A stretch of 64,000 nt of DNA from an uncultured Methanosarcinales archaeon (GCA_964527395.1 CAZGQD010000001.1:3000-66999), one strand, 5' to 3'; counted from the first letter of the stretch, positions 46,453-64,000 are shown. Translations and numbers: made by a program. Notes: generated by a model from the letters alone, not told the origin.

Positions 46453-47112
46453 TTGATTATGGTTGATTCGTATGGTTCTGGTTCTGGTGGTTCAGGAGTA
46501 TCTGGAGGAGTGGGTGCTTCTGCTGGAGCTAGGGTTTCTGGAACTGAAGCTGTGCTTTATTCTGTGCCTAAGAAAATGTCAACTGTGTTCTTGTCTAAGT
46601 TTTTGGTACTTGTTTTGCTTTCTGGCTTATTTTATGCTGGAATTTTGTTGAATATCTCATTGTTATCGCTTCGTAGGGCTACTGAGAGTAATGCCAAAAT
46701 TGGAGCTTTAATGATAGTGGTGTTCTTGCTATTTTTTGGACTTATTAGTAATTTTGTTAAGGCTAAACATCCAATTGTGTTTTTGCAGACAGGTGTGAAA
46801 CTGTCTAAGCATAAAACTTTGTTGTTTTCAGAGATTAGTAGTGTTGAACGTAAAAGAGGGATTTTTGATAGAATTTTTTCTAGTTATCATTTACGATTGA
46901 ATAAAAAATATGTGCTTGAAGGGATAGATAATTCTGTTGATTTAGAGACTTATTTGAATCAGTTAGTAGCTTATGCACATCAGCAGTCTGCTCAAAGTGG
47001 TTATGGATATTCAAGTCAAATGGGTCAGATGGGTCAGGGTGGATATGGTTCTAGTGGGTCTTATGGTGGTTATGGATCTAATGCTGGTTATGATGGGCAG
47101 AGAAGGTATTGA
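46453..47112 (+). CDS. Membrane protein with bacterial-PH (YdbS/YdbT-like) domain and Gly/Ser/Tyr-rich termini
   Basis: Two TM helices followed by LFSEISSVERKRGIFDRIFSSYHLRL (bPH_2-like). Low-complexity G/S/Y ends. Confidence 0.45.
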   Translation: MIMVDSYGSGSGGSGVSGGVGASAGARVSGTEAVLYSVPKKMSTVFLSKFLVLVLLSGLFYAGILLNISLLSLRRATESNAKIGALMIVVFLLFFGLISNFVKAKHPIVFLQTGVKLSKHKTLLFSEISSVERKRGIFDRIFSSYHLRLNKKYVLEGIDNSVDLETYLNQLVAYAHQQSAQSGYGYSSQMGQMGQGGYGSSGSYGGYGSNAGYDGQRRY

Positions 47113-47121
47113 GTGAGTTTA

Positions 47122-48792
47122 TCAAAAACCAACGTAGCCTTGCTGAGTTTCTTGGCTGTTTTCTCCCAATTCTTTGATTTGTTCTGCTTTTAGTTTTTCT
47201 TTGTATTCTTTTACGTAATTTGGGTAGAAGGGAATACTTATTGGGATTGCGAATCTGGTGAAAGTGGAAGTTACTATTGCTTCACCTTTGTCTAGAGAGG
47301 CTATGGATTTAGATTGGTCCTTTAAATCTTGAGCAGCACTTTCTATGATAGCTTGACGTTCAGGTTGCATTTCTATTCCTAAGATGATTTTGGTGTTCAT
47401 GTTAGCTAGAATGGTTTTTGGAATTTCTGAAGGTAATTGGGTAATTGCTGTTAGACCGATTTTGAATTTACGTCCTTCTCTTGCTAAAGTGTCGAAAACA
47501 TTTGAGCCTTGCTCTAGGACTTTTTTACCTAAGACTCTTGGAGCTTCTTCTAGAACAATACTGATAACTGGTTTTGTTTCTAGGGTGCCTTCACGTTTGT
47601 ATTTTTTGTAGAGACTTAGCATTTCTGTAGCTATCATAGCACCAACCATGATTTCTACTGCGCCTGAAAAAAATGAAGTGTCGATAATCACTTTTTTACC
47701 TTGTTCTAATTCTTTGGTGATCTCTGAGATTGTGTTTTCTCCAGCAGTTGTTGAGAATATTCCGTCGGCTGTGATTTGGTTGTTGTCTAGGATGTCTAGG
47801 TTTAAAAGGGACATGAGTTTTCTTTTTACTACTGCAACAGTGTCAGGGTGGAAACTAGCACCTTGGATTCTTTCTTCTTTCATGATGGCAGGAATCCATT
47901 CTTGTTTGAACTTTTTGTTGTATAGGAGCATTAATTGTCTTTGTGGAGAACTTAGTTGTAAGGCACCGTGAAAATGGTTTGGTTTTAGAATGCAAAGGTT
48001 GAAGATAAGGGTTTTAGCACCAGGAGGAGGTTGTGTAGGGGTATAGTAGCTGACATTTTGCCTGGTTTTAGGGTGGTTTTTAAGTCCAAGTTCTGTTCTG
48101 CCGTAGTATTCATCATGAGGATCTAAGATAAGCATGCCTAAGTAGTCTTTGTTCGTACTGTCCCAGACTAGACATTTAAGAAAATTAGATTTTCCCTTAC
48201 CAGTACTTGCAGCTACTAATAAGTGGTGACTGAATACTTCCTTACCTGGTAGGAAAATGTCTTTGTTGATTTTTTTGGATCCGCTCCTTAAGTTTCCTAG
48301 AAATAATGCATCTTTTGGAGTTTGCATGAAGCTAATGTCATCTGCTTGTATCTGTTTTACTTTAGCAAATATTTCTGGGAGTTTTTTACAAGGAATTGCT
48401 TTGTGATTGTTGTTTTGGTCTTTTTTTATTATTAGAAGGGGTTTGAGAATGGCTATTTGATAGATTCTTTGAGATGTGTTGAAGAGGTTGGTGTCTAAGT
48501 TGTCTTCTAATCTTAATCCGGAGACCATTTCTAGGTTTTGTTGGCTCATTTGGTAAGAATATGATAAATCGTATACTTGAGCTAGGATGATGGTGTTTTG
48601 GTCTTTGCTGTTTGTATCTTTTGTCTCAATTGTAACTATTTCACCAATTTCAATCTCTTGGTTAGATTTGACTCGCATGAGAATTTTATCAAAATCACCA
48701 CCTAAGACTTCACCTTTGATTTGGTTTATGTTTTGCTCTTTTTTTGTATTTTCATCCATTGGTAATTTTTGGTTTTGGGTGTTTTTAAGCAT
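47122..48792 (-). CDS. HerA/FtsK-like ATPase (DUF87 family)
   Basis: N-terminal barrel-like region ([15 protein letters not shown]...IGEIVTIE), Walker [12 protein letters not shown], Walker [13 protein letters not shown], and [20 protein letters not shown]. Confidence 0.8.
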
Positions 48793-49545: not shown

Positions 49546-49806
49546 TTGATTATGGAAGCAACAGTAATGCATTTTAGGCAAGGAAGACACCACCAGAACA
49601 CTGGGCAAGTGATTTTGAAGGCTAGTGAGTCAGCAGAGGAGTCTGAGAAGCTAATTGGAAAGAAAGTTACTTGGAAAAGTCCAGCTGGAAAAGAGATTTC
49701 TGGTAAAGTATCAGCTTTACACGGTAGAAAAGGGAATGTAAGAGCTATTTTTGCTGAGAAGGGGTTACCTGGACAGGCTCTTGGAACAAAAGTAGTTATT
49801 GCTTAG
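49546..49806 (+). CDS. rpl35ae: 50S ribosomal protein eL33 (L35Ae)
   Basis: GKKVTWKSPAGKEISGKVSALHGRKGNVRAIFAEKGLPGQALGTKV is the L35Ae signature. TATA at 49521-49530. Confidence 0.8.
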   Translation: MIMEATVMHFRQGRHHQNTGQVILKASESAEESEKLIGKKVTWKSPAGKEISGKVSALHGRKGNVRAIFAEKGLPGQALGTKVVIA

Positions 49807-49965: not shown

Positions 49966-51231
49966 ATGGCAGATTATACAGTTGGTGGACGATTTATTTT
50001 ACTTCCTGATGTTCGTAGTAGGAAATCAGTTTTAGAAGCAGCAGGAGAAGTAATTGATACTAGAGAAGCTGCTAACAATTCTATTAATTATGATGCTGTA
50101 ATTGCTCCAGGGAATTTGATTAATGCAACTGAAGGTTTTTCTACAGAAAATTATGGTGGAGCTTTTTCTTTGGTTCTTGATGCTCAAAATGAAGTTCTTC
50201 AGGCTAGGAGGTCTGACCTTGAAGCTGCAAGCTCTTCTTTACAAGTAAAGATGCAAGAAAAAGGAGTTAATGGAGAAGAAGAACTTATGCAAAAGTTGCA
50301 GGAAGGAGATGAGGATTTAAGGCCTTTATTTGAAGCAGTAATGACTATTCAAAAAGAAATTGGAGAAGAATCTTTAGAAAAGGCATATAGTAATGGATTT
50401 ACTTTAGATCATTTGCTAGGTGGAGTTAGAAGTGAATATGAAGGTTTGAAACCATCTTTTGAAAATCTTGCTTCTAAAGTACCTATATTTTCTATTTGTG
50501 GTGGACAAGATACTTTGCTTGCTTATGAGGTATTAGATCAAAGTAATGGAGGGCCTTTACAGTTTGTTGAGTATAAGAAAGCTGGAGTAACTTTATCTGG
50601 AATTAATGGATTAGATTGGTTTGTTCAAGGTGATACAAATACAGCTCAAAGATCAAATATAGCAGGTATGTTAAATACTCTTTGTGGGTGGGAAGGTAAA
50701 GAAGATAGTTTAGTTGATATTTTGATTAATTATAATTCTGGATTAACTGTTAATGAAGAGAATAAAGGATTAATGAATGATGCAAATTATAGACTTGGAA
50801 TGGCCAGTGGTAGAATACTTACATTTTCACAAAGTGTTCAAAAAAATAGATTAGATGATACTGTTTTAGATGCTGATGGAAACCCAAAGAAAGCTGATTT
50901 ATTTATATCTAGTAATCCAATTTATAATGCTTTATTTGGAACAGGAGATGTGGCACTAGAGTATGGAGTTAAATCAAATACTGTATTTTCTGGTAATGAA
51001 CCAGTTGCTAGAATTGGTAATTTGATTGGTCCAGCTATAGATCAAGCAATTCAGGCTTCTACAGAAACTTGCACTGTTGAAGGGTATGATGGAGAAGTTC
51101 CAGTATTTTATTTTGATGTAGATGAAAGTGGAGTTCCACAACTAAATTGTGGTCCAGAATACATGTTTGAAGTAATTTATGATGATCAAAAACAGGTACA
51201 AGAAGTAATAATTTATGATATTGCTGCTTAA
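49966..51231 (+). CDS. Hypothetical protein (421 aa)
   Basis: Long ORF with a TATA at 49934-49943. No signal peptide or recognised family. Confidence 0.55.
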   Translation: MADYTVGGRFILLPDVRSRKSVLEAAGEVIDTREAANNSINYDAVIAPGNLINATEGFSTENYGGAFSLVLDAQNEVLQARRSDLEAASSSLQVKMQEKGVNGEEELMQKLQEGDEDLRPLFEAVMTIQKEIGEESLEKAYSNGFTLDHLLGGVRSEYEGLKPSFENLASKVPIFSICGGQDTLLAYEVLDQSNGGPLQFVEYKKAGVTLSGINGLDWFVQGDTNTAQRSNIAGMLNTLCGWEGKEDSLVDILINYNSGLTVNEENKGLMNDANYRLGMASGRILTFSQSVQKNRLDDTVLDADGNPKKADLFISSNPIYNALFGTGDVALEYGVKSNTVFSGNEPVARIGNLIGPAIDQAIQASTETCTVEGYDGEVPVFYFDVDESGVPQLNCGPEYMFEVIYDDQKQVQEVIIYDIAA

Positions 51232-51271
51232 AGGTTTTATTAGAGTTACTTAGATTGCTAGTATTTTTGTT

Positions 51272-53260
51272 TTATCTTCTTCTTCTACCGTTTGGAGATG
51301 ATCTTTTTCTTTTTGTTGAAGTCCATTCTGATGCTCCACTTGGCGATCTTGGATTTTGACTAGTTCCACCTCTGGTTTTTGTGGTAACTCTTCTATGTGA
51401 GTCTGATTTGCCATTTGGTGTTAACCATGTTTCTTTTTGCCTTTTTCTTCTTTCTTTTTCATGATTTGGAATAGCATAGTCAGGGGCTAAGACTTTAGAA
51501 CCGTCTGAGATGTGTTCTGTCGTGAATCTTTTGTATCTTGAAGAATGTTTTTCTTTAGCAGATAATTCTTTACTTAGTTGTCTAGCTATTTTTGCTTTTA
51601 TAATGGAATCTGCTGAGAGGTCAGTTATTTCTTTAGTTATTTTTTCAGTTAACCTTAATAGGTTTTCAGCGCTTCTTTTGATGTTTTTTGCTTCTTGAAG
51701 ATTTTTATTGATGCTTCTTTTGATGTGTGGAGGATAATCTTTAGAGAGTTTATCTTTTTTCTCAGCAAGTTTTATAGCTTTATCAGCGTCTTTGATGCAT
51801 TGATTTATTGCTTTTTTAGTGTCATCTCTAGATTTTCTTGCAGCTTTTAAAGTAGCTCTGGTAGCAAGTGCATATCTTTTTGCGTTTTCAGCATTTGTTG
51901 TATGGTTTGGTTCTTTATTTTGGATGCTTCTTAAGAATAGTAAGATCCCATTATGGAAAAGTTTTGTTTTTTCTTTTTCGAAAGAAACTTTTTTTGAATG
52001 TATAATTGCTTTTGTTTTACTTTGTTTTGCTAAGTTAACAAATTTTTCTACTCTATTAGCTCTACCTTTTGCAAATCTTTCTTTGTAAGTTAACCTTTTG
52101 GCAGCTTTAGCTTCTGCTTGCGCTGCTAGTTTTCTGATTGTAGCCAAATCAGCTATTCTTTCTGCAGCAATTCCTCTTTCTCTTGCTGCGTTTGCTTTTA
52201 GAGTGTCTAAAACTTTTCTCATCTCTGCAGCTTTAGCAGCTGCTTTGTGACTATCTTTGTTTCTTTTAGATTCTGCTTGCGCTTCTTTAGCTAATCTTTC
52301 TTGTTCTTTTGCTAATCTTGTAGCTTCCTCTGCCGCTATTTTTGCAGCTTCTGCTGCTGCTTGTGCTTTTTCTGCTGCTTCTTTTGCTGCTATAGCTGAG
52401 TCTCTTTCTGCCTGTGCTGCTGCTTGTTCTTTTCTTGCAAATTCTGTTTCTGCTCTTGTTGCATCTCTTTGTGCATTTTGATTATCAGTTTCTTCTTTAG
52501 CTAATCTTGCAGCTTGCTCTGCTGCTGTTCTAGCTTCTTCTGCATCTCTTTGAGCTTGCTGCGCAGCTTGTCTTCTCAAATCTGCTTCTGTTGCAGCAGC
52601 TTGTGCATCTTCTAAAATTTTGTGTGCTTTAGAGATTGCATCTTCGAGAAAAGAATCTTCAATTTCTTTTTTTAATTCAAGAATTTGATCTGTTTTTTCT
52701 TTAGCTAAGGATTTTTGTTCAATTGCATTGTTAACATATCCTTGTAATGTGTCTATGACTGTAAGAAAATCAGGCTTGTCAATATCAAAATTAGTGCTTG
52801 TTCCAATAGCATCTACAATAGCTTTTGATTGAGTAGTTTGATTCGATGTTTCTACTTCATGTTGTTTTACTAAGAGGTTAAGTTGATTTATTCTTTCTAA
52901 TTTTTGTCTGATTGCAGTATTAACATCATTTTTATTTATAGAATAAGTAGAAGTTGTTGCATCATTTGCAATTTTTGATAGAATAATTACTGTTTTTTGG
53001 GCAGCTCCAGCAGCAATGATCAAATTTTTAACTTTGATTAGGACAATTTCTTCTGCTTCTTTTTTTGTAGCTTTTGATGCTTTGATGATGTTAACGATAT
53101 CTTCTTTAGTTTTGTCTGCTTTATTTGATAAAAGTTCTGAAATTTCTGCGTGGGATTTTGTTTCTTCAAGTTTTTGCATAGCTAAAGTAGCGTTGATTCT
53201 AGCTTCAGTGGCCAATTTCACAATAGGTTTTCTAGTTGCCATTTTATTTGAAATATTCAT
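51272..53260 (-). CDS. Long Ala/Glu/Lys-rich coiled-coil protein with Arg/Lys/Ser-rich C-terminal tail
   Basis: AAQQAQRDAEEARTAAEQAARLAKEE...AAKEAAEKAQAAAEAAKIAAEEATRLAKEQ. Its start overlaps the upstream stop (ATGA). Confidence 0.55.
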   Translation of the reverse strand: MNISNKMATRKPIVKLATEARINATLAMQKLEETKSHAEISELLSNKADKTKEDIVNIIKASKATKKEAEEIVLIKVKNLIIAAGAAQKTVIILSKIANDATTSTYSINKNDVNTAIRQKLERINQLNLLVKQHEVETSNQTTQSKAIVDAIGTSTNFDIDKPDFLTVIDTLQGYVNNAIEQKSLAKEKTDQILELKKEIEDSFLEDAISKAHKILEDAQAAATEADLRRQAAQQAQRDAEEARTAAEQAARLAKEETDNQNAQRDATRAETEFARKEQAAAQAERDSAIAAKEAAEKAQAAAEAAKIAAEEATRLAKEQERLAKEAQAESKRNKDSHKAAAKAAEMRKVLDTLKANAARERGIAAERIADLATIRKLAAQAEAKAAKRLTYKERFAKGRANRVEKFVNLAKQSKTKAIIHSKKVSFEKEKTKLFHNGILLFLRSIQNKEPNHTTNAENAKRYALATRATLKAARKSRDDTKKAINQCIKDADKAIKLAEKKDKLSKDYPPHIKRSINKNLQEAKNIKRSAENLLRLTEKITKEITDLSADSIIKAKIARQLSKELSAKEKHSSRYKRFTTEHISDGSKVLAPDYAIPNHEKERRKRQKETWLTPNGKSDSHRRVTTKTRGGTSQNPRSPSGASEWTSTKRKRSSPNGRRRR

Positions 53261-54597
53261 GTAATGTCATTTACACATTCTTCTGTTTCTTGAGCGTAAT
53301 GTTCAGCAGCACCTGCAGCAGCTTCAGCAATTTGAACATATCTTTCAACTCTGGAGTTTGCTTCTTGTGCTTCATTTAATTCTTCATCTGTTGGACCATC
53401 TGAAGGGTCAGGTTCAGGTTCTTCTGGATTTCTTGTATCATTATCATCAGGGTCACTTGGGAAACCAGGTTGTCTTATTCCTCTACCAATTGGTCTTTTA
53501 GCTCTTGGAGGAGTTCTTGATCTGTCTGGGTCATCATCATTTCCTGGTGGAGTCCTTCTACGTCTTCCTCTAGGCGGGTTAGGTCCTCTTGTACCGTCTT
53601 CATTGTCATCATCCTCACCAGGGTTGCTTTGATCTCCAGGTTGTCTTATGTTCCTATTATCGCCTCTTCTTCTGCCCCTTCTAGGGTTTGGGTTTCTTGA
53701 ACCGTCTGGGTCATCATCTTCATGATCGTCATTTGGTGGAGTTCTTCTTCTTCTTTCTCGACCAGCATCTGAACTGTTGTCTCTTGGATCGCTACCTCTT
53801 CTACCAGATCTTCCATCTCTGGAACCATTAGATGCATCTGAACCGTCTGCTCCATCTCTACCATCAGCGCCATCCCTACCGTCAGCTCCATCTCTTGCAT
53901 TATTGTTTGGAGGTAATTGTTCTTCATCTCCCATGTCTCTGACAATGATTTCGTTAGCTTTTTTGATGAAGTCGTCAATTTGGTCTATAATATAAGCACA
54001 AAAGTCTTCAACTTTTTTGATATTTGCTTGTAATGTAGTTACTTTTCTTCTGTAACTGTTAGCAGTAGCTTTTGGAATCTTTTTATGGCAATGTTTTACG
54101 TAGAATTCTAAGGCATGGTCACAAAGAGTGTGAACAGCTGAAAGGGCTTTATTAATTGGATCTCTAGTTAGTCTATGTGAAACTCTTACATTCCTTCTAG
54201 CTTCTTGTAATTTGTTTCTAATCCTGCTGGAAAGAGATTTTGCTTCATTCGTAGTTGAATCATCTTTCTTTTTAGATAGAACTTCAGTTCTTAATTCACG
54301 ACAAAGAGCGATAACTTCTAAAAGTTTTCTTTTTGCAATCATAAGATATTTCTTACGCATTTCTAATTTGTCTTTTTTTTTTTTTGTCTTTTTTCTTTTT
54401 TTGTTCCACTTTTTGAAGTCTTTTTCAGCTTGTTTTGCTTTTTCTTCTTTTTCATTTTTTTCTGCTTGAGTTTCGAATGATAAGAATTGGAAGAAATACC
54501 AAGCTGTGGCTAAAAAAGCAAAACCAATAGCTACATGTAAGAACTCAACTACTGTACCCCCCACTACCAGAAAGCCTATTAATTCCTCTGCTGTCAT
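53257..54597 (-). CDS. Membrane-hairpin protein, paralog A: TM hairpin, Lys-rich segment, helical domain, long R/D/G/N/P low-complexity tail, short helical C-terminus
   Basis: Start placed at MTAEELIGF by homology with 55425..56342. The first ~222 aa are nearly identical to the paralog. The tail has RDGADG x3 and two ~50-aa RRRRTPP...IRQPG modules. Confidence 0.55.
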   Translation of the reverse strand: MTAEELIGFLVVGGTVVEFLHVAIGFAFLATAWYFFQFLSFETQAEKNEKEEKAKQAEKDFKKWNKKRKKTKKKKDKLEMRKKYLMIAKRKLLEVIALCRELRTEVLSKKKDDSTTNEAKSLSSRIRNKLQEARRNVRVSHRLTRDPINKALSAVHTLCDHALEFYVKHCHKKIPKATANSYRRKVTTLQANIKKVEDFCAYIIDQIDDFIKKANEIIVRDMGDEEQLPPNNNARDGADGRDGADGRDGADGSDASNGSRDGRSGRRGSDPRDNSSDAGRERRRRTPPNDDHEDDDPDGSRNPNPRRGRRRGDNRNIRQPGDQSNPGEDDDNEDGTRGPNPPRGRRRRTPPGNDDDPDRSRTPPRAKRPIGRGIRQPGFPSDPDDNDTRNPEEPEPDPSDGPTDEELNEAQEANSRVERYVQIAEAAAGAAEHYAQETEECVNDIT

Positions 54598-54805
54598 ACT
54601 TGAAAATCGCCTCTTTTGAAATTTTGATAAGTGATGTTGAGCTATACTCAACGCAGTTAATTTCCGTACATTTTCATATACTAATATTAACTGCGTTTCG
54701 AGATACTGAACGAGTGCAAATGATTGCATGAAATGTTCGATTATTTTGTTCGTTCAGTATATTCGTTTTGATCAAAATAGTTTAGTGAATAATTGTGATC
54801 TGTTT

Positions 54806-55372
54806 TTAAGTTGCTGTTGCACTTTTTAAGTGGTTGATGTAGTGTAACATTGAGGATAGGATCCAAAACAAGAGTAGGCAAAGTGCAAATTGAACAAATC
54901 TAGCTGCTCTTTTGTTACTTTCATCATTCATCTTTAACCATTCTGGTATCTTGTAGACCATATACATAATTCCAATTGTAGGGCCACCTATAAGGATTAA
55001 TGAAATTGCAGTTGCCCAGCCTGCTCCAACAGCGCCAAGAGCTTCTAAAGGTATGAAAATCCCTGAAATGATTGCTAAAATACCTGCTACAATTGCTCCA
55101 ATAGCAGGATTTGGCTCTTTTAATGGTTTTAGAACTTTTACATGTTGAATTACTGCATAGAAAATAGCAAAAATTAGGATTGTGATTAAGAATCTCATAA
55201 ACATTAGTAACATGACGCTTGATTCCATTCCTGGGATCCATGAAAAACTACCAATTGCGATGACTTTATTGAAAACATTAGTTAATGATTCTACAACATC
55301 TGCGTGTGCAATAGGAATAGCAAGACTTGTTGCTAGAATAGTAGCTATTTTTTGTTTGTTCATCCATCTCAT
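54806..55372 (-). CDS. Polytopic membrane protein with signal-like N-terminus
   Basis: MRWMNKQKIATILATSLAIPIAHA followed by four or more hydrophobic helices. Confidence 0.55.
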   Translation of the reverse strand: MRWMNKQKIATILATSLAIPIAHADVVESLTNVFNKVIAIGSFSWIPGMESSVMLLMFMRFLITILIFAIFYAVIQHVKVLKPLKEPNPAIGAIVAGILAIISGIFIPLEALGAVGAGWATAISLILIGGPTIGIMYMVYKIPEWLKMNDESNKRAARFVQFALCLLLFWILSSMLHYINHLKSATAT

Positions 55373-55424
55373 GGACGAAAAGAAGTAATTTGGGTTTATA
55401 AGGCTTACGTTATGGCGGAGATGA

Positions 55425-56342
55425 TTAGTCTTCTCCTCTTCTATTATTAGCAGGTCTTCGTCTTACAATTGCTGCTGGTCTTCCAGGTCTATTTGTATTT
55501 CTTGCTCTTGAATCGTTTGTGCCATTTGTTTCGTCGTTTCCATTTCTGCCATTTCTACTGTTAGTTCCGTTCCTATCATCAGCTCCATCAGTACCATCTC
55601 TTCCGTTGTTCCCATCATCTGTGTCGTTATCAGATCCACTTCTATTGTTGCCTGGAGGAACTGTTTCTTCACCATCCATATCTCTTACAGTGATTTCGTT
55701 AGATTTTTTGATGAAATTGTCAATTTCTCTTACAATATAAGCACAATAATCTTCAACTTTTTTGATATTTGCTTGTAGTGTAGTTACTTTTCTTCTGTAA
55801 CGGTTAGCAGTGGCTTTTGGAATCTTTTTATGGCAATGTTTTACGTAGAATTCTAAAGCATGGTCACAAAGAGTGTGAACAGCTGAAAGGGCTTTATTAA
55901 TTGGATCTCTAGTTAGTCTATGTGAAACTCTTACATTCCTTCTAGCTTCTTGTAATTTGTTTCTAATCCTGCTGGAAAGAGATTTTGCTTCATTTGTAGT
56001 TGAATCATCTTTCTTTTTAGATAGAACTTCAGTTCTTAATTCACGGCAAAGAGCGATTACTTCCAAAAGTTTTCTTTTTGCAATCATAAGATACTTTTTA
56101 CGCATTTCAAGTTCGTCTTTTTTCTTTTTTGTCTTTTTTCTTTTTTTGTTCCACTTTTTGAAGTCTTTTTCAGATTTTTTGGCATTTTCTTCTTTTTCAT
56201 TCTTTTCTTCTTGAGTTTCGAATGATAAAAACTGAAAGAAATACCAGGCTGTGGCTAAAAAAGCAAAACCGATAGCTACATGTAAGAACTCAACTACTGT
56301 GCCTCCTACTACTAGAAAGCCTATTAATTCCTCTGCTGTCAT
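55425..56342 (-). CDS. Membrane-hairpin protein, paralog B (shorter N/G/R/D-rich tail)
   Basis: About 0.67 kb (55675-56342) is near-identical to 53930-54597. Confidence 0.55.
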   Translation of the reverse strand: MTAEELIGFLVVGGTVVEFLHVAIGFAFLATAWYFFQFLSFETQEEKNEKEENAKKSEKDFKKWNKKRKKTKKKKDELEMRKKYLMIAKRKLLEVIALCRELRTEVLSKKKDDSTTNEAKSLSSRIRNKLQEARRNVRVSHRLTRDPINKALSAVHTLCDHALEFYVKHCHKKIPKATANRYRRKVTTLQANIKKVEDYCAYIVREIDNFIKKSNEITVRDMDGEETVPPGNNRSGSDNDTDDGNNGRDGTDGADDRNGTNSRNGRNGNDETNGTNDSRARNTNRPGRPAAIVRRRPANNRRGED

Positions 56343-56487
56343 CTTTTTCTTTTTTTTATTGGTTGATTTTAGTAAGTGGAGAATGTTTTTGGCTTTATTA
56401 ATGTTTTTGAATTTTGTTTTGAAGTTGAGTTGTTTAATTATATGAGTTTAGCTTTGTATTTTGAAGGAGATGATTTGCTATTGTTCA

Positions 56488-56502
56488 AAAAGCTTATTAA
56501 GG
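56488..56502 (+). promoter_or_regulatory. TATA-like box for 56525..59911
   Basis: aaagcttattaagg about 27 nt upstream of ATG 56525. Confidence 0.45.
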
Positions 56503-56524
56503 TCTATTTGTTTTGTTAGATAGT

Positions 56525-59500
56525 ATGGTTGTTAAAAAGATGCAGATAAAGATAGGTTCAAAGTATTTTAGAGGTTTATTGAATGATGGTTCTGATCAGA
56601 TGAAATTGAGTTTTTTTGAGGTTTCTGTAATAAAGGGTTTTTTCAAGAAGGTTAGAATTGCATTAATTTTAGATTTAGATAAACCTGGTTCCCGTAGGTC
56701 ATTATGGAATTTCACTATAGCTAAACAAGAACTTTTTATGAAGGATTTATTGTCATTTTTGTCTTTAGATGATAGGGTGGAGCTAGCAGATTATAAGGAT
56801 TTCTTTGATTCTTCTAAAAAATGTCGTGAAATTCTTCCTTTTATAAAGATGATCTTAGAGAATTTTTCTAAGTATGAAAAAATTTTTAGTTCACAAGATA
56901 AATCTGCTATTTTACTTAAATTTAGAAATTCTGTGATTCATTTTGAAGCTTATTTGTTGAATAAAGGAATTGTTAAGAAAAAAAGGACTGCATCTAAAGT
57001 AGGCAAGGCTAAAAAAGTTGAAGGAAAGAAAGCAAAGTCAGGTAAGGCTAAAGTTGAAAAATCTGCAAAGCTTAAGAAAAGTGTTACTAAAAGAGTTTTG
57101 AGTAGGTTTAGTGGTAAGAAGAAAGGATTTTTTAGTAAATTACTTGTTTCTGAAGATTTGGGTGCTTTTGTAGGAACTATTAATTCTGATGAGTTTTTGG
57201 TGGCTTTTGAAGGAGTTTCTAGGTTGAAAAGTGATGGTTTTTGGGATAAATATAGTGAGGAATATTTCAGTAATGCGTTGTCTATTTTTGAGCTTGATGG
57301 TCTTAAGTTGGTTGATGGAACTGATTATTCCAAATTAGGTAAGGGTGATGTTATTGCTTCAGCTTATTTTAGTGTTGCTTTTAGAGTGGATTTATTGTTT
57401 AAAAGATTATTGGCAATTAAAGGACATTTCGATAAAGGTTATTTCATTGATGGTGATTTAAAGGAAAGTATTGTGTCTTCTTTAGGGATTGTTAAGAAAG
57501 AGGTTATTAAATATAAGGGAAATCTACTGAAGTATAAAATTGCTGAATATAAAAAGCCTAAAATTGGCCTTATCAAAAAAGGGAAGATAAGGCTTGCTAA
57601 GGTAGGTTCTGCTAGGAAAAGATTGAGTTCTAGAGTAAAGAGAATAGGTTCTAAGAAAAGTGGTAAGCATTTTTTTGTAAGGTTGATTGAAAGTAAGGAT
57701 GTTTTCTTGAAGAAACCTAAAAATAAAGACTGGAATGAGCTCTTAAAGGTAAAGTTAAATCCAGAACTAGGGTTAGAGTCAGTTGGAGCAGAACTAGTAA
57801 GAGATCAAGTGAAAAGTTTATTTGATGCTGTAAGAGTTTTTGCTAAGAATGTTGCAGAAGTACAAGAGAAGTTAGAAAGAAAAGGGCCAATAGATCAAAA
57901 ATTGAAAGATTTGGACATTCTTTCAGATGAATATCGTGATTCTTTAAGGGCTTCAATGCTTTTAGATGATGAAATTGTTAAACAAAAAAAACAGATTTTG
58001 TATTTAATTAATGAAAAGATTAAACCAGCATTAGGTCCTTTGGGGTTTTTTGATTTGAAGAAAACTAGAAAACCTTTACCTACAAGGTATACTTTTGGAA
58101 TTTTGCTACAAATAGGTGGATTGAGTAATGAAGAGTATTTAAAGAATCATTTAGGGAAGAAATTAAGTGGAATTCTTTTAGGTCATGTTAATTCTTTGGA
58201 AAAGGGGATGGATTATGTTATTCAATTATTGCAATTATTTGAATTAACTGAATCTGAAAGAAGGTCAGATCATGGGGAAAGTATGACTGATGTAGAGTTG
58301 TTATATTCACTAGGAAATGAGTTTGAAAGAATTAAAGATTTATTAGTTATCCAGTTAGGATTTTTAGATAAAATAGGTTCTGCTAAGGAGAAGGTTCCTT
58401 TAGTTGAGGAAGAATGGGAAGCAGATGAACATTTTTTCCAACGATTGTTTAAAACTGACAAAATTAGTGAAGGAGAGTTTTTTTCATCGCGAGATTATGC
58501 TGTTCTTAGTGCTTCTTTGAAGAAAGTTAAACATGGGCTTTTAGAAATTAAGGGAAGTTATGCAACTGTTGAAGGTAATAAGTTGAATGCAAAACAAAGA
58601 GCAGATTTTTATACTCTTATTTTGCAGCAAGTTGCTTTTGTTGTTAAGGAATTAGAGCATGGTTTACATTTTACTCATTCAGAGGAGTCAGCTGCCGGTT
58701 TAGCTGCTGTAGATTCTTCTTTACACAATTTGATTGATTTAATGAAAGATCATCCTTCAGTTCAATATTTTGAAGCAAAGAATGTTGATCCAATAATTGA
58801 TGCTTTGACTACTTTAGAAGTTTATTTGAAAGATTTGAATACTCTTGTGACTACGCCTAAAGGTAAATGGAAGAGGATGACTAAAGGTAAACTTAAGAGT
58901 TTTAGGTATAGGTCAAAAGGAAAAAATATTGATGATCATATGGGGAAGATTAGGTTACTTTTGCTTGAGCAGTTAGGGTTTACTCATGAGGTTGTTGATT
59001 TTGAGAAAGGTTTTGTGACTAAAGCAAAAGTATGGCCAGAAGTACACCTTAAGGTTGAAGAAGTTAAAGTTGGTGGGCATAGGTCTTCTAGGGTGGCAGG
59101 TGATTTTCAGAGGGTATTAATTGATAGTTCTGGTAGTGGTTCTTCTTATCAAGTAAAAATTAGGCAAAATAGGAAAGTAAGACTTGGGAGAAATAAATAT
59201 GTCTTCAGAAAGGATCATGATCATTTTGTGGTGTGTAATTTGGAACGTAAAGAGAAGTTTCAGTTGATTGAGCACGGGATTGAGGGTGAAAAGCTAGTTT
59301 CTAGAAAAAAAGGTAGCCATCATGCAGTTTCAATGCTTTTGCCATTGCCTTCAAAAGGTCCGCTTGTTCTTGAAAAAAAATATGCTGTTTTTGATTTTGT
59401 ACCAAAAAAGTATGTGTTTATGTCTTTTGAAGGAAAAGCGTATCAAAAGAAGATAGGGATGAAAGATTTGAAGGGGACTTTTGGTAAGATGTCGGTTGGA

Positions 59501-59911
59501 ACAAGGTATTCACGTTATGTTGAAAGTGATTTGTTTGGAATGTTTAGAATGGTGGCTCAAGCAATTGGAGATAGAGAAGGAAGAATTAGATTATCTTTGA
59601 TTTCAGCTTCTAATAGTAAATTCGGAGTTGCTTTAAAGCAAGGTGGAAGATACGTTGAGAGAAGGGGATCTACAAAGGTTGTTTATGATGGTCAGAAGGT
59701 ACAAATGGTTGTTTTACGTGAGATTGATCCAAAAAAGAAGCTTGCAAAGTTAGTGGTTACAAGTGGAGACCGTAGAAAATTGCATTTTTTCAATATAGAT
59801 TTAGTTTCTGAAGAGAAAGAAGGAAAGGTTAGTTTTGATTTAAGAAAATTGTTTGATACAACAATAAATATTTGGTCAGATGCTGATGCAAGGTATTTTT
59901 TTGATGAATGA
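56525..59911 (+). CDS. Large Lys-rich hypothetical protein (about 1128 aa)
   Basis: ATG about 25-30 nt after aagcttattaagg. The C-terminal ~250 aa are homologous to the C-terminus of the next gene. Confidence 0.55.
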   Translation: MVVKKMQIKIGSKYFRGLLNDGSDQMKLSFFEVSVIKGFFKKVRIALILDLDKPGSRRSLWNFTIAKQELFMKDLLSFLSLDDRVELADYKDFFDSSKKCREILPFIKMILENFSKYEKIFSSQDKSAILLKFRNSVIHFEAYLLNKGIVKKKRTASKVGKAKKVEGKKAKSGKAKVEKSAKLKKSVTKRVLSRFSGKKKGFFSKLLVSEDLGAFVGTINSDEFLVAFEGVSRLKSDGFWDKYSEEYFSNALSIFELDGLKLVDGTDYSKLGKGDVIASAYFSVAFRVDLLFKRLLAIKGHFDKGYFIDGDLKESIVSSLGIVKKEVIKYKGNLLKYKIAEYKKPKIGLIKKGKIRLAKVGSARKRLSSRVKRIGSKKSGKHFFVRLIESKDVFLKKPKNKDWNELLKVKLNPELGLESVGAELVRDQVKSLFDAVRVFAKNVAEVQEKLERKGPIDQKLKDLDILSDEYRDSLRASMLLDDEIVKQKKQILYLINEKIKPALGPLGFFDLKKTRKPLPTRYTFGILLQIGGLSNEEYLKNHLGKKLSGILLGHVNSLEKGMDYVIQLLQLFELTESERRSDHGESMTDVELLYSLGNEFERIKDLLVIQLGFLDKIGSAKEKVPLVEEEWEADEHFFQRLFKTDKISEGEFFSSRDYAVLSASLKKVKHGLLEIKGSYATVEGNKLNAKQRADFYTLILQQVAFVVKELEHGLHFTHSEESAAGLAAVDSSLHNLIDLMKDHPSVQYFEAKNVDPIIDALTTLEVYLKDLNTLVTTPKGKWKRMTKGKLKSFRYRSKGKNIDDHMGKIRLLLLEQLGFTHEVVDFEKGFVTKAKVWPEVHLKVEEVKVGGHRSSRVAGDFQRVLIDSSGSGSSYQVKIRQNRKVRLGRNKYVFRKDHDHFVVCNLERKEKFQLIEHGIEGEKLVSRKKGSHHAVSMLLPLPSKGPLVLEKKYAVFDFVPKKYVFMSFEGKAYQKKIGMKDLKGTFGKMSVGTRYSRYVESDLFGMFRMVAQAIGDREGRIRLSLISASNSKFGVALKQGGRYVERRGSTKVVYDGQKVQMVVLREIDPKKKLAKLVVTSGDRRKLHFFNIDLVSEEKEGKVSFDLRKLFDTTINIWSDADARYFFDE

Positions 59912-59972
59912 CTTCAATGTATTTAAGGAGATTTTGCTTTATTTTTATTGGACTTTTTTAGAAAAAGAATAA

Positions 59973-59983
59973 CTTTTATTAAC
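59973..59983 (+). promoter_or_regulatory. TATA-like box for 60008..61567
   Basis: cttttattaac about 27 nt upstream of ATG 60008. Confidence 0.45.
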
Positions 59984-60007
59984 TACAATTCTATTTGTTT
60001 TATTTAG

Positions 60008-61567
60008 ATGTCAACAAGGGATGATGGAAGTGGTGCAAGTCCAGGGGATGAGGAGTATGATGGTATTCTTACAGGTGATATAAAAAAGATTAATTTTGGT
60101 AAAAGAAACCTTATTGAGAGGTTGTTTTTTTATGATGATATCAAAAATGTATATATGAGCAGTATTGAACTGAATAATTTTATTCTAACTCTTCAAAGAT
60201 TGCAAGATGTATTTAGAGAGATATTGAGGTTGTACCCTCTTTTTGAAGCTACAAAAGGTAAAACTTCAGCTAAAGGAATGAGTGAACGTTTTGGATATTT
60301 TAGTGCTTTAAAGAGTAATTTTGAGAAAGCTGAGTTTCTGATCAGGGAAGGAATGAGGTTTTTAAGTGTTAGGAAGACAAGTATAGGTACGATAAGGAGA
60401 GATAAGAAGGGTTTATCTGTTTCTTTTCATGATATTATGCGTTTTGCAGCAGATGAATATTCTGGTGCTTTTCCTGAGAAAAAAGTGATTAGTTATTTGT
60501 ATCATTCTGTTGCAAATATGAAAGAATTATTGGTGATCTTTAAAGCGAATGCAGGGAAAAAAGATCAAACACCGTTACTTTCGCATATTCGTGATCTGCT
60601 TATTCATGAAATGGGATATTTAGAGAAAATTGAAGATTATGTTACAAAGGCATCAGTTGAAGTTGCTGTAGTTCCAGGTTTACATCTTGAATTGGAAGAG
60701 ATAAGGGGTAAGAAGAAATTTGTTCAGGTGATAGAGCAATTTAGAGATATAGGGGTTGAGAGTGATGATTTTGAAGCAAAAAGACCTTTTATGAGTTTTA
60801 ATGTGCTTAGAAGTGGTAGAAGAGGTGTAATTTTCACTAAAGATATAAAATATCAGTTTATTGATCATGAAGAAGATGAAGAAATAGAGCTTAAAATCAG
60901 AAGAAAAGGGATTTTTGAATTGATTGGTCAAGGAGATCATGGAGAAAGAGAAGTTTCTGAGAGGAAGGGAAGATTAAATGAAGTGTCTGTTTTTATTGAT
61001 ATGCCAGAAGACATAGATAGAAGTGATATTTTAGTTAAGGCTTTTTCGTTGTATGATATTGATTATGAAGAGGATCATTTCTTTGATTATTCAGGCTATG
61101 TTTTTCATAAAGGAGGTAGAAGTTCTTTGCCAGTAACTGTATTAGGTAGGGTTGAGAAAGATAAGCATTTTATGATGAATTGGCGTAGTAATTTACTTAG
61201 TGATAGTTGGGACAATTTTCAAATAGTGGCTGTATGTGATTCAGATGATGAAAACAAAATTCATATGCATATGGTAGCCCACACGTCTGTAAATTTTAGA
61301 GCAGTTTTGACTCAAGGTGGGAAGTATAAAAACCAAATAAGTAATTCAACTCATACATATTTTCAAGGAAGAAGGGTGTCTTTAGCAGTTTTAGATAGGT
61401 TAGATGCTAGAAGCAAGAATCCGAGACTTGAAATACGTTCTAATGATGGCAGAAAAGTGAAGTATTTTGATATCAAATTTAAGTTTGGAGTTAGAAAAGA
61501 TAAACATAAAAAGAAGTTAGATAAGATAGCAGATGTGAAGTTAGTATTGTGGTGGGGAGTTAAGTAA
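60008..61567 (+). CDS. Hypothetical protein (519 aa), C-terminal domain paralogous to 56525..59911
   Basis: FRAVLTQGGKYKN...YFQGRRVSLAVLDRLD...DGRKVKYFDIKF aligns with FGVALKQGGRYVE...VYDGQKVQMVVLREID...DRRKLHFFNIDL. Confidence 0.55.
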   Translation: MSTRDDGSGASPGDEEYDGILTGDIKKINFGKRNLIERLFFYDDIKNVYMSSIELNNFILTLQRLQDVFREILRLYPLFEATKGKTSAKGMSERFGYFSALKSNFEKAEFLIREGMRFLSVRKTSIGTIRRDKKGLSVSFHDIMRFAADEYSGAFPEKKVISYLYHSVANMKELLVIFKANAGKKDQTPLLSHIRDLLIHEMGYLEKIEDYVTKASVEVAVVPGLHLELEEIRGKKKFVQVIEQFRDIGVESDDFEAKRPFMSFNVLRSGRRGVIFTKDIKYQFIDHEEDEEIELKIRRKGIFELIGQGDHGEREVSERKGRLNEVSVFIDMPEDIDRSDILVKAFSLYDIDYEEDHFFDYSGYVFHKGGRSSLPVTVLGRVEKDKHFMMNWRSNLLSDSWDNFQIVAVCDSDDENKIHMHMVAHTSVNFRAVLTQGGKYKNQISNSTHTYFQGRRVSLAVLDRLDARSKNPRLEIRSNDGRKVKYFDIKFKFGVRKDKHKKKLDKIADVKLVLWWGVK

Positions 61568-61713
61568 GGAGAGTTGTTGTTTGTTCTTAGTGTTGATAAT
61601 GTTATTTTTTTGTTATTTTCTATAAGTGTAATTAAATGTATAGTTTTCTTAGAAATAGTGTAGTTTTAAGGGATGGTTGTTATAAAATGAATAAAAGTTA
61701 AGAAAAAAAAGGA

Positions 61714-63243
61714 TTATTTGATGATCCAATGATCTTTTAGGAAGTTATGGATCCCTATTGTAGCGTGTAAAACTTCTTTTTCTTCAATTTCTATTGCTTT
61801 ATTTAGTCCTTTTGGTTCTGTTCCTTTGCCATTAAGGAATTCGTTTATTTCTGATAATATGTTTTCAAGTTGTGTTTTTGCATCACTTGCATCAAAAATT
61901 TGTTTATTTTTGCTATAGTAGTCTTGTATAAGGGAGATTTGTTTTAGGTCATTTTCATTAAATTTATTTTCTTCATTTTCTTTTCTATAGATTGGTTTAT
62001 TGTTTTTTATTCTATTGAAAATAGTTTCAATGGCTGTTTTGAATTTTCCATATTCTGCCATGAATTTTTTTTCATTTTTTCTTGCAGCTTCTATGTTTCT
62101 TTCTATTTTAATGAATCCATTAAGTAAATTATCCTCTAATGCTTGGAGATCTCTAATTTCTGATCCAGTTCTTTCTTGTTCGATGAATTCTTTTATAAGC
62201 TTTTTAACTTCTTTAGTTTGTCTTCTGTTGGTTTTTTTCCATCTGTTTTCTGCTCTAATTACGTCTTTTAGGTCTTTTTCTAGATCATTTGCTCGACTTT
62301 CTATGATTTTGAAATGTTCTTTTGTTATAATTTCTGAACTATCTCCTGTAATTAGAGTAGCTATTGAAGTTCTGAATTCTTCTGTAATGTCTTTTGTTGC
62401 TTGGAGTTCTTTTAAAACTGCTTTTTCATCATGAATTTCTTTTAATAGTAGGAACTTTTCACGTCTGGCATGTTGGAGTTTTCTTCCTTTTACAGTAAAT
62501 CCCCCTGTGTCAGAGTGTTGGATTCCTCTGTCTACAACTGTTGACAACCAACCTTTTCCTTGTTCAGATGGATCTACTCCAGTACTACTGAAGCCTTTGA
62601 ATAGTGCATGGATTAGTAAGAAGATGTTGATGATTAGGGCTGCACCTACTACAGTATTCACATTTTTAAATGCATCTTCTAAACCAGCAGGTCTAGGGGT
62701 GATATCTGCAATCATTCTAAGCATATCGTCTGATGCAGAGATCTCTCCATCACCTAGAGCTGCAGTCATAACACCAAGGACTATGATTACTAAGAATAAT
62801 ACAATTGCTCTTAAGAAATGTTGTTCTTTTAGAAAAACATATGCTGCTGCACCAGGTGCAACCAAAGCGACTAGAAGGATTAATGAGAAAGCTACTCCAA
62901 GGCCAACTGCCCAACCGAAAAGAATTTGAGTTGGAATAAAGAAAACTCCAATGATGGAAACTGTGGTAGCAATTACTATTGAAGAAGGACCTTTTAAGAA
63001 TGGGATTTTGCTAAGTAGTGCGTTAAAGACAAAAGCAAAGGTAAAGATTAGACAAAACCTAATTAATCCGTCTAAAGGAGATAGGTTTAGTTTTATACCA
63101 ACAGTTTCTAAGAATTTTAGGGTGATTAGACTTGTTGCCATTTCGCTTAAGGTAGCTGCAAAAGCTGTTGTTGATAACAGAGTTACAAAAGCTGCGATAA
63201 TAATTGAGTAAATTGTGATTTTTTTATAGTTCATTCCATCCAC
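61714..63243 (-). CDS. Polytopic membrane protein with long cytoplasmic coiled-coil C-terminal half
   Basis: Signal-like N-terminus plus about six hydrophobic helices, then K/E-rich helical sequence. Confidence 0.55.
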   Translation of the reverse strand: MDGMNYKKITIYSIIIAAFVTLLSTTAFAATLSEMATSLITLKFLETVGIKLNLSPLDGLIRFCLIFTFAFVFNALLSKIPFLKGPSSIVIATTVSIIGVFFIPTQILFGWAVGLGVAFSLILLVALVAPGAAAYVFLKEQHFLRAIVLFLVIIVLGVMTAALGDGEISASDDMLRMIADITPRPAGLEDAFKNVNTVVGAALIINIFLLIHALFKGFSSTGVDPSEQGKGWLSTVVDRGIQHSDTGGFTVKGRKLQHARREKFLLLKEIHDEKAVLKELQATKDITEEFRTSIATLITGDSSEIITKEHFKIIESRANDLEKDLKDVIRAENRWKKTNRRQTKEVKKLIKEFIEQERTGSEIRDLQALEDNLLNGFIKIERNIEAARKNEKKFMAEYGKFKTAIETIFNRIKNNKPIYRKENEENKFNENDLKQISLIQDYYSKNKQIFDASDAKTQLENILSEINEFLNGKGTEPKGLNKAIEIEEKEVLHATIGIHNFLKDHWIIK

Positions 63244-63391
63244 CTCTAAAAACCCTTAGGTTAAAGTATAATAGTTATACTTTAGGGATAGAATTTTTGC
63301 TTTTAAATGTTTCGAAGTTTGAATGTGTTTTTTCGAGTATTTATTGTATAAATTTAATAGAAAGAAAAAGGGATTAAAAAAGAAAAAATGT

Positions 63392-64000
63392 TTATTGTTC
63401 CAATAGTGCTTGTGTAGCAGCTTCAGCTTGAGTTGGTTGCGCCATTGTAGGTGCTTGGAAATTAGCTGCAGGAGATGCTGTTGAAGCAGGTTCAGATACA
63501 TAAGTACCGCCAGCGTTACCAACTTGAGTTCTTAGTGGTTGCTGTACTGCTTGCGCTTCTTGTCTTTCTCTAGCTGCATGATCTAATCCACTGAAAAAAT
63601 TGTGGTCAACATGTCCTACTGATCTACCTAATTCTGTTTCGTGTTTCTTATTAATAAGGTCTTTATGATGTTTAGTGTTGTGGTTGTTGTCAAAACTATA
63701 TGTTTCGTTAATATCACCACAGCTTTTTGCTAAGTCATAAGTGGTATTTTCTAAATAATCAGCACCATTTTTGTTTGCAAATTGGAGTTCTTGTGCGTTT
63801 GATCCAACTTGTCTACTAATAGTTCTTCTACGATCTCTTGCTCTATTATCAGCGATGTTTTCAACAAGGCCAGTAACTTCGATAGTTCCATTTGCCATTT
63901 CTTTTAAACCGTAGTTAAAATGGTTAGATTCTCTTGTTTCTCCTTCAATAGGATCTCCATTTGCGTTTTGGTAACCAAAATGTATAGATAATCTAAGTAA
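63392..64000 (-). CDS. Hypothetical protein, probably 5'-truncated by the window edge
   Basis: The frame stays open upstream of the ATG at 63898 to position 64000 (..IHFGYQNANGDPIEGETRESNHFNYGLKE-MANGT..). The C-terminus is Q/A/T-rich. Confidence 0.45.
   Translation of the reverse strand, partial: LLRLSIHFGYQNANGDPIEGETRESNHFNYGLKEMANGTIEVTGLVENIADNRARDRRRTISRQVGSNAQELQFANKNGADYLENTTYDLAKSCGDINETYSFDNNHNTKHHKDLINKKHETELGRSVGHVDHNFFSGLDHAARERQEAQAVQQPLRTQVGNAGGTYVSEPASTASPAANFQAPTMAQPTQAEAATQALLEQ

Follow-up and report, generated by a model that had tools for sequence, protein, structure and literature searches.

A nine-gene block in a Woesearchaeal genome as a probable expanded copy of a conserved membrane-protein module

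Archaeal DNA import by the Ced and Ted systems has its counterparts in type IV secretion, with CedA corresponding to VirB6, CedA1 to VirB2 and CedB-CedD to VirB4 (PMC11868833, PMC9905601), and the Ced layout is one in which polytopic and small membrane proteins are encoded beside an ATPase of the HerA/VirB4 class (PMC11868833). A similar neighbourhood occurs in the DNA that we analysed here, a window of 64,000 nucleotides (C1:3000-66999, i.e. contig CAZGQD010000001.1 of assembly GCA_964527395.1) from a genome that we place in the Woesearchaeales (see below), where nine consecutive genes, g1 to g9, some of them for membrane proteins, lie next to a gene for a HerA/VirB4-superfamily ATPase. Unlike in Ced and Ted, however, the membrane proteins of this block are without sequence similarity to those of the import systems, and the ATPase is soluble, of a type linked to mre11 and split off from the block by the ribosomal protein gene rpl35ae. 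A second described arrangement, the archaeal herA-mre11(-rad50-nurA) genes for end resection, resembles our locus in that the neighbouring ATPase is an orthologue of the mre11-paired HerA of Woesearchaeota; yet no gene of the block encodes NurA, Mre11 or Rad50, and mre11 and nurA are here found on other contigs. The third comparison is with the metallophosphoesterase superfamily PF00149, to members of which, at the same locus in relatives, g1 is homologous over its full length, although g1 has lost the residues for metal binding and catalysis, save for the first Asp, and its subfamily carries a helical insert of ~100 residues between motifs II and III. We found no published description of the tetraspan and helical-anchor proteins that make up most of the rest and, as far as sequence comparison can tell, no described family or system fits eight of the nine block proteins or the module in its entirety. 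By homology and gene order, g1, g3, g4, g5 and g8 are members of a chromosomal module that is conserved in Woesearchaeales, and we consider it rather likely that the entire block is a chromosomal, vertically inherited and species-specifically expanded copy of this module, whose products would work as a membrane complex.

In its ancestral-type form the module measures 3-6 kb and is built from two tandem pairs, each of which combines (i) a tetraspan protein of ~175 residues with a signal peptide and four transmembrane (TM) helices and (ii) a helical-anchor (cc) protein whose N-terminus is external and whose single TM helix leads into a basic helical domain of ~200 residues in the cytoplasm. In the source genome, pair A is the fused gene g8 (61714-63243, minus strand, 509 residues), pair B consists of g4 (54806-55372, minus strand, 188 residues) and g3 (53257-54597, minus strand), g5 (55425-56342, minus strand, 305 residues) is an extra copy of g3, and g1 (49966-51231, plus strand, 421 residues, acidic and soluble) represents a phosphoesterase descendant. 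Membership was checked with hidden Markov models (HMMs), the family models being matched by g4, g8, g3 and g5, and by gene order, which is the same in relatives: homologues of g8, g4, g3 and g1 follow in this order beside rpl35ae and herA in genomes of the same genus as well as of other genera. g4 is predicted to have a signal peptide, an amphipathic helix and four TM helices, the first of which (TM1) contains a conserved Arg. Its alignment (A5) holds 28 sequences with 22-43% identity to g4, and the profile of these 28 members found no match in Pfam or among PDB entries; a hit to the Pfam tetraspan family Fig1, seen with two of the 28 at E values of ~1e-3, we take to be noise from hydrophobic composition. 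In one genome of the same genus (L013 1717-2296, on G003:C10; G stands for a compared genome, with G000 as the source, L for a compared locus and C for a contig) the g4 homologue is distributed over two frames of 122 and 118 residues which overlap each other, owing to either a frameshift or an assembly error.

The partner of g4, g3, has a TM helix at residues 6-24 behind a short external N-terminus, a basic cytoplasmic helical domain of ~220 residues and a long C-terminal low-complexity tail of Arg, Asp, Gly and Pro, and in both g3 and g5 a segment rich in Lys and Arg follows the single TM helix as a topology signal. Although the open frame of g3 reaches 54729, we set its start at the Met at 54597, as in its paralogue and relatives. 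On the cc-family HMM, which has g3 itself among its seeds, g3 scores an E value of 2e-54, and independent homologues come from L013, L014 and L023 and from 20 of the 80 related loci. g5 reproduces the first 230 codons of g3, with 92.6% amino acid identity across 230 residues and 93% nucleotide identity across 690 nucleotides from the start codon, before it continues into a different and unrelated low-complexity tail that ends in RPAAIVRRRP. Codons that differ between the two genes do so synonymously in 25 and non-synonymously in 17 cases, and third positions account for 29 of the 49 differing bases, a pattern which places both copies under purifying selection. By this degree of identity, g5 is a recent duplicate of g3.

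How closely the two families belong together is best seen in g8, where a g4-type domain (residues 11-163, E value 9e-18) is joined to a cc-type domain (residues 193-401, E value 3e-8), both detected with HMMs that were built without g8 as a seed. The predicted layout is that of a tetraspan domain, a further TM helix and a cytoplasmic helical domain that covers residues ~193-401 and beyond, and homologues in its alignment (A3) are 17-27% identical. This domain sharing adds a third paralogy, overlooked by the first-pass annotation, to the two paralogue pairs which that annotation had named correctly (g3/g5 and g6/g7). Nor is g8 the only fusion: the second pair is fused, g4-type to cc-type, in L046, L047, L054, L060 and L061, and the first pair forms a single gene in several genomes. 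Natural gene fusions are classical evidence for joint action of the products, so the repeated fusion of g4-type and cc-type genes suggests that these two products probably act together. An AlphaFold2 model of g8, based on 13 homologues, is all helical and shows four to five TM helices, one more TM helix and, on the cytoplasmic side, a long helical bundle; the predicted local distance difference test score (pLDDT), 64 for the whole model, reaches 70-83 in its membrane part. Foldseek comparison of this model with the PDB gave nothing below an E value of 0.25, and its matches at 0.25 or worse (syntaxin, designed bundles) were dismissed as generic helical bundles. In distant lineages the g4 domain stands at the head of proteins of 313-998 residues, the remainder of which is unannotated save for one IPT/TIG domain. 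Two such proteins, of 800 and 576 residues, are encoded at L114 4590-7004 (G398:C4) and L119 4542-6272 (G187:C7), one having an IPT/TIG (Ig-like) domain and the other a Baculo_PEP_C match of 34 bits (cut-off 38); as the g4 domain heads differing long proteins, this tetraspan domain seems to combine with varied soluble parts.

To follow the module through related genomes, herA, which is 58-63% identical between genera, was used as an anchor; at least 576 such loci exist, and we analysed 81 (80 related public loci and L022). Of these, 55 extend at least 4 kb upstream of herA, and in 26 of the 55 the module is found immediately upstream, on the same strand as herA. Four genomes of the same family (G003, G002, G007, G023) share a compact arrangement, and G016 has it with one inserted gene: tetraspan, helical protein, second tetraspan, second helical protein and a gene of ~400 codons on the opposite strand, usually followed by rpl35ae and herA. 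A six-frame search recovered homologues of g1 in six of 40 relatives, and the DNA around them also encodes relatives of g3/g5, g4 and g8. With the g4-family profile (A5), 66 of 401 genomes across the phylum were found positive, namely 31 of the 42 sampled from the same family, 32 that represent 22 further families of its order and three from other orders of the class, with none outside the class in this phylum sample. Within the sampled genomes the module is thus confined to Woesearchaeales and close relatives. Relatives with a short form of the locus have the same flanking genes; the distance from herA to g9 is ~16 kb in the source genome versus a module span (first gene to herA) of 1.4-7.6 kb in 32 related loci, which makes it the largest seen. 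What had been proposed from the sequence alone, a lineage-specific membrane or envelope module, is hence supported for the core genes, given their recurrent order and place in many Woesearchaeales genomes and their fusions, and the further proposal that the block be made only of ORFans holds for g2, g6, g7 and g9 and fails for g1, g3, g4, g5 and g8, which have clear homologues in related genomes: five core genes are syntenic across relatives and four genes lack a homologue.

Since the module adjoins herA in about half of the related loci, one may ask whether it forms the membrane part of a HerA-driven translocator of DNA or protein, analogous to Ced/Ted or to secretion of type IV or VII. Its polytopic and small membrane proteins next to an ATPase of this class would agree with the Ced layout (PMC11868833), and the ATPase (47122-48792, minus strand, DUF87, 70 bits) gives a weak match to the CedD model (71 bits against a cut-off of 600) that takes in most of the ATPase, residues 110-518. 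Against this, all the HerA, CedD and defence-HerA models that we tried stay far below their cut-offs, the ATPase has no TM segment, and no similarity to VirB6/CedA or to VirB2/CedA1 came up, g4 having no sequence match in Pfam or the PDB and the fold comparison, which covered the membrane part of g8 only (pLDDT 70-83), no significant one. Moreover, in most loci module and herA are separated by rpl35ae (49546-49806, plus strand, Pfam Ribosomal_L35Ae, 43.5 bits), which has the opposite orientation and is divergently upstream of herA in 50 of 78 loci, so that the two are not one operon; g1 lies 160 bp downstream of rpl35ae and in the same direction. In deeper Woesearchaeal clades an mre11 gene with 'GSHD' as motif III stands directly behind this herA orthologue (L073, L078, L087, L096). 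In the source genome, mre11 (C5:2096-3427) and nurA (C9:22491-22886) lie elsewhere, herA being unlinked from mre11 in this family, and there are four DUF87 ATPases in all, two of which exceed 1000 residues and are found on C27 and C3. With mre11 beside herA in deeper clades, and with mre11, nurA and three more DUF87 ATPases elsewhere in the genome, our ATPase looks like the repair HerA. It is a conserved neighbour and, to our minds, probably not a part of the module, and a translocator driven by it is very improbable. Convergent with herA, a membrane protein with ends rich in Gly, Ser and Tyr is encoded at 46453-47112; it has no Pfam match at an E value of 0.01 and is kept beside herA within the genus (L013 6698-7252, L023 12318-12893).

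Among the core genes, g1 differs in being soluble and in having relatives that belong to a described family. Its homologues align over the full length at 21-31% identity and occupy the equivalent position in relatives; the one from G007 matches PF00149 (Metallophos) with 40 bits (cut-off 21.5), another stays below both cut-offs with 24 bits for Metallophos_2 (cut-off 27) and 21 bits for Metallophos (cut-off 21.5), and g1 itself has no Pfam match. In the alignment (A1), the motifs GD, GNHD, H and GHxH are kept in all five relatives and DxH (as DTH, DLH or DIH) in four of them, with DLG in the fifth, whereas g1 reads DVR, GN, GGQD, S and GNEP at these positions and retains only the first Asp. 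Because metal-binding and catalytic motifs are replaced in what is otherwise an end-to-end alignment, g1 is by descent a calcineurin-like metallophosphoesterase that we predict to be inactive, i.e. a pseudoenzyme. The first-pass annotation was in this sense literally right to see no recognisable enzymatic motif in the nine genes, yet it missed that g1 derives from an enzyme whose catalytic motifs have been lost. That g1 might be a relocated Mre11 was rejected, since the true 'GSHD' Mre11 of the genome is encoded on contig C5 and bears no significant resemblance to the g1 family. A profile of the phosphoesterase family found no match among PDB chains, and a scan of the genome contigs with g1 as a single protein found none either.

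Only six of the 81 related loci have the phosphoesterase gene, which belongs to one subclade and is encoded opposite to the two pairs, and its presence goes along with a feature of the pair-B helical protein. In the six phosphoesterase loci, the last 25 residues of this protein contain 6-11 Lys and Arg, versus mostly 0-5 in 25 others, and in several of them the Lys/Arg-rich tail has a PRAVVRRRP-like motif; Arg-rich C-termini are also seen in g3 and g2. We infer from this co-occurrence that the basic tail may dock the phosphoesterase.

The four remaining genes, g2, g6, g7 and g9, add up to 8.3 kb and are placed at junctions of the module. g2 (51272-53260, minus strand, 662 residues, isoelectric point (pI) 9.9) is predicted to be a helical protein rich in Ala, Lys and Glu that ends in an Arg-rich tail and lacks TM segments, and shows neither ATPase motifs nor family matches. 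g6 (56513-59911, plus strand, 1132 residues, pI 9.7), a basic soluble protein, and g7 (60008-61567, plus strand, 519 residues) are paralogues, the last ~490 residues of g6 aligning with g7 at 23% identity over 491 residues (E value 1e-22) and at 24% along the whole length of g7. The predicted secondary structure of g7 is helical towards the N-terminus and rich in beta strands towards the C-terminus; the AlphaFold2 model of g7, for which the C-terminal part of g6 was the only other row in the alignment, was discarded as unusable (pLDDT 35). g9 (minus strand, 453 residues in full, 392-1753 in locus L003) reaches from 63392 to the equivalent of window position 64753, its 5' part lying past the window; it has a charged N-terminal region, a moderately hydrophobic stretch at ~80-112, which falls below the TM threshold used, a mixed domain and a disordered tail of Ala, Gln and Pro.

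None of these four proteins matched any open reading frame (ORF) of the 80 related loci, and for g2, g7 and g9 no homologue was found in 100 genomes of the same family. An exhaustive HMMER search with g6 through 1.84 billion cluster representatives (~15 billion proteins) returned only its own fragment and g7. In a word-indexed set of 5.8 billion proteins, g7 matched only itself, and g9, in the word-indexed database, only a 98% identical strain variant with an 18-bp deletion in the tail; as this kind of search missed known homologues of g8, it is too insensitive and was not used alone to call an ORFan. In the sister genome G001 (JABHSG010000001.1), which has the same flanks and core genes, the equivalent slots are filled by different orphans, one of 471 residues in the slot of g1, one of 500 residues with a hydrophobic segment in mid-chain and a basic protein of 986 residues, none of which is detectably related to g1, g9 or g6/g7. 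Profile comparison likewise gave a probability of 0.2% for a relation of g6/g7 to the 986-residue ORFan (compared through its last 871 residues, the part contained in L023) and 8% for one between the phosphoesterase family and the 471-residue protein, so that no relation could be demonstrated in either case. In G016:C1, from another genus, unannotated acidic proteins of 364 and 794 residues are encoded in and beside the module (L016 10934-12028 and 16682-19066), which suggests that the locus gathers lineage-specific genes in several lineages.

Such turnover would also suit a different account, in which only the five core genes form a unit and g2, g6, g7 and g9 are unrelated fast-evolving or newborn genes in a recombination-permissive gap. 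Accessory genes are indeed wholly different between species of one genus, in contrast to the constant flanks, with herA and rpl35ae at one end and the genes for an AI-2E permease and a presenilin homologue at the other; other loci have other unrelated inserts, for instance a glycosyltransferase in the g9 slot of G002, and g6 and g7 are transcribed opposite to the module genes. What speaks for a closer tie is that the stop of g3 and the start of g2 overlap as ATGA, which we read in the sequence as the earlier annotation had it for the minus-strand operon and which fits co-translation, that g2, g6 and g7 are strongly basic, as are the cytoplasmic domains of the module proteins, and that g6 and g7 sit inside the module, between g5 and g8, rather than at its edge. 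We therefore regard a merely variable spot as unlikely, though it is an account to be taken seriously, and for the narrower question whether g2, g6, g7 and g9 are partners of the module or passengers the odds seem about even.

If the block is an expanded copy of the module, as we favour, its working might be pictured as follows. Tetraspan and single-TM proteins would assemble into a heteromeric complex in the cytoplasmic membrane, with the conserved Arg in TM1 of g4 perhaps contacting a conserved acidic motif, EFIDYA, at the outer end of the partner's TM helix. Cytoplasmic helical arms and basic tails would dock soluble partners, either an active phosphoesterase or its inactive descendant g1, and possibly also the basic proteins g2, g6 and g7, whereas for g9 a role as a variable constituent of the membrane or surface is conceivable. 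The four genes (g2, the paralogues g6 and g7, and g9) would on this model have been added at module junctions. Our best guess from the sequences at hand is a membrane scaffold of several different subunits that works with partners specific to the lineage. Several points weigh against this proposal. Structure prediction has provided no functional lead, given the generic bundles and overall pLDDT of 64 for g8 and the unusable model of g7. The orphans are tied to the module by position only and, in the case of g2, by the ATGA overlap, so they may be passengers in a variable spot. For g2 and g9, the status as ORFans rests on the 100 family genomes and the 80 related loci (plus the word-indexed database for g9). 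Finally, the link between basic tail and phosphoesterase has exceptions (L060, L054 and L023) and draws on few, mutually related lineages.

A further possibility, already raised in the first-pass annotation, is that the orphans, or perhaps the whole block, are decayed cargo of an integrated virus or plasmid. The dense run of ORFans, the toxin-antitoxin (TA) pair at one edge and the patchy occurrence of g1 homologues (seven of 41 relatives) would be in keeping with this, as would the weak match of the nearby HerA/FtsK-type ATPase to a terminase family in PHROGs. Comparison of the nine proteins with Pfam, PHROGs, NCBIfam and PADLOC gave no significant match, however, and the earlier remark that integrase, capsid-like, terminase and replication motifs are missing was confirmed by the Pfam and PHROG scans, in which no integrase, recombinase, capsid, portal, terminase or replication family appeared (folds were searched for g8 only). 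Weak matches of block proteins to tail-fibre, collagen and DndD families all fall in low-complexity or coiled-coil stretches and were dismissed, and tail-fibre families are the only ones that the block matches in PHROGs. There is no tRNA gene in the 64-kb window and no att-like repeat flanking the block within it, the direct repeats being those of low-complexity sequence and the g3/g5 duplication; the end of the block past the window was outside this repeat search. Nor do g6 and g7 have relatives in viral contigs, the core genes keep a fixed chromosomal position across an order with the same flanks in relatives, and the ATPase is a conserved cellular gene, as its many loci attest.

Composition, too, argues against foreign origin. 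The codon-usage distance of the nine genes ranges from the 15th to the 62nd percentile of 675 ORFs of the genome, and their GC content of 0.32-0.39 is likewise within the normal range. Within the block, as in the rest of the window, the sign of GC skew tracks the coding strand, and together with the typical codon usage this makes the nine genes look real and native. A mobile-element remnant is thus exceedingly improbable, and to us the locus illustrates that ORFans in a dense block next to a HerA ATPase and a TA pair do not by themselves indicate a prophage or defence island. A second public assembly of the locus (L109, L110) is 99.6% identical, too close for a ratio of non-synonymous to synonymous substitution rates (dN/dS) to be of use; within the block it differs from the source by two substitutions and the 18-bp deletion in the tail of g9 (window positions 63468-63485), which, being in-frame, fits a coding sequence. 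In the source genome, no paralogue of any of the nine proteins was found outside the block.

What such a module may be for can be addressed only with more caution. DPANN archaea, small cells that depend on hosts, represent a large share of archaeal diversity, and their envelope organisation and dealings with hosts are largely unknown. One could envisage the tetraspan/helical-anchor pairs as the core of an undescribed envelope apparatus of Woesearchaeales, a platform that would recruit fast-evolving partners (g1, g2, g6, g7, g9) for species-specific host contact or uptake; we consider this doubtful, and offer it as speculation. Were it true, the complete turnover of accessory genes between sister species would speak of an arms race or of host switching. 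Independent of this scenario, our analysis distinguishes two membrane-protein families, which are conserved across the order and apparently undescribed, from genes added in single species, and it offers experimental handles in the active versus dead phosphoesterase of sister species and in a basic tail that tracks the enzyme. Proteins of 1132 and 519 residues without relatives among ~15 billion predicted proteins also bear on gene birth in reduced genomes.

As for the limits of the block, its layout as nine consecutive long genes, already given by the first-pass annotation, is borne out by an ORF table without competing frames, and the start at 49966 likewise holds. Its end was put at 64000, the last position of the window, and needs revision, as g9 extends 753 bp beyond it so that the block comes to ~15 kb (49966 to ~64753). 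Upstream of g1 one meets rpl35ae, a DUF7557/PemK TA pair and the HerA-type ATPase, in line with the statement that the block follows a TA cassette and a ribosomal protein gene, and in the source locus the TA pair has been inserted between herA and rpl35ae. Beyond g9 the chromosome continues with ordinary genes, for the AI-2E permease, a presenilin-type protease, an MBL-fold protein, HisRS and MetAP.

The assembly from which the window was taken comprises 1.585 Mb in 63 contigs, is ~95% complete and has a G+C content of 34%. The source organism is a DPANN archaeon of the Woesearchaeales (Woesearchaeota), a placement which follows from the titles of related contigs (Candidatus Woesearchaeota, Nanoarchaeota, Nanoarchaeia) and from archaeal markers near the loci of relatives, including fibrillarin-type and Nop56-type genes, aIF2-gamma and a proteasome alpha subunit. 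Across the whole window GC skew is very strong, from +0.2 to +0.44 over plus-strand genes and ~0 over minus-strand genes, a pattern that amounts to a marked genome-wide enrichment of G over C in the coding strand. Many contigs of the 'MAG TPA_asm' kind that bear the title 'uncultured Methanosarcinales archaeon' have the Woesearchaeal herA locus, at 53-62% identity, and so does one contig titled 'Candidatus Aminicenantes bacterium'; these look like taxonomic mislabels or mis-binning.

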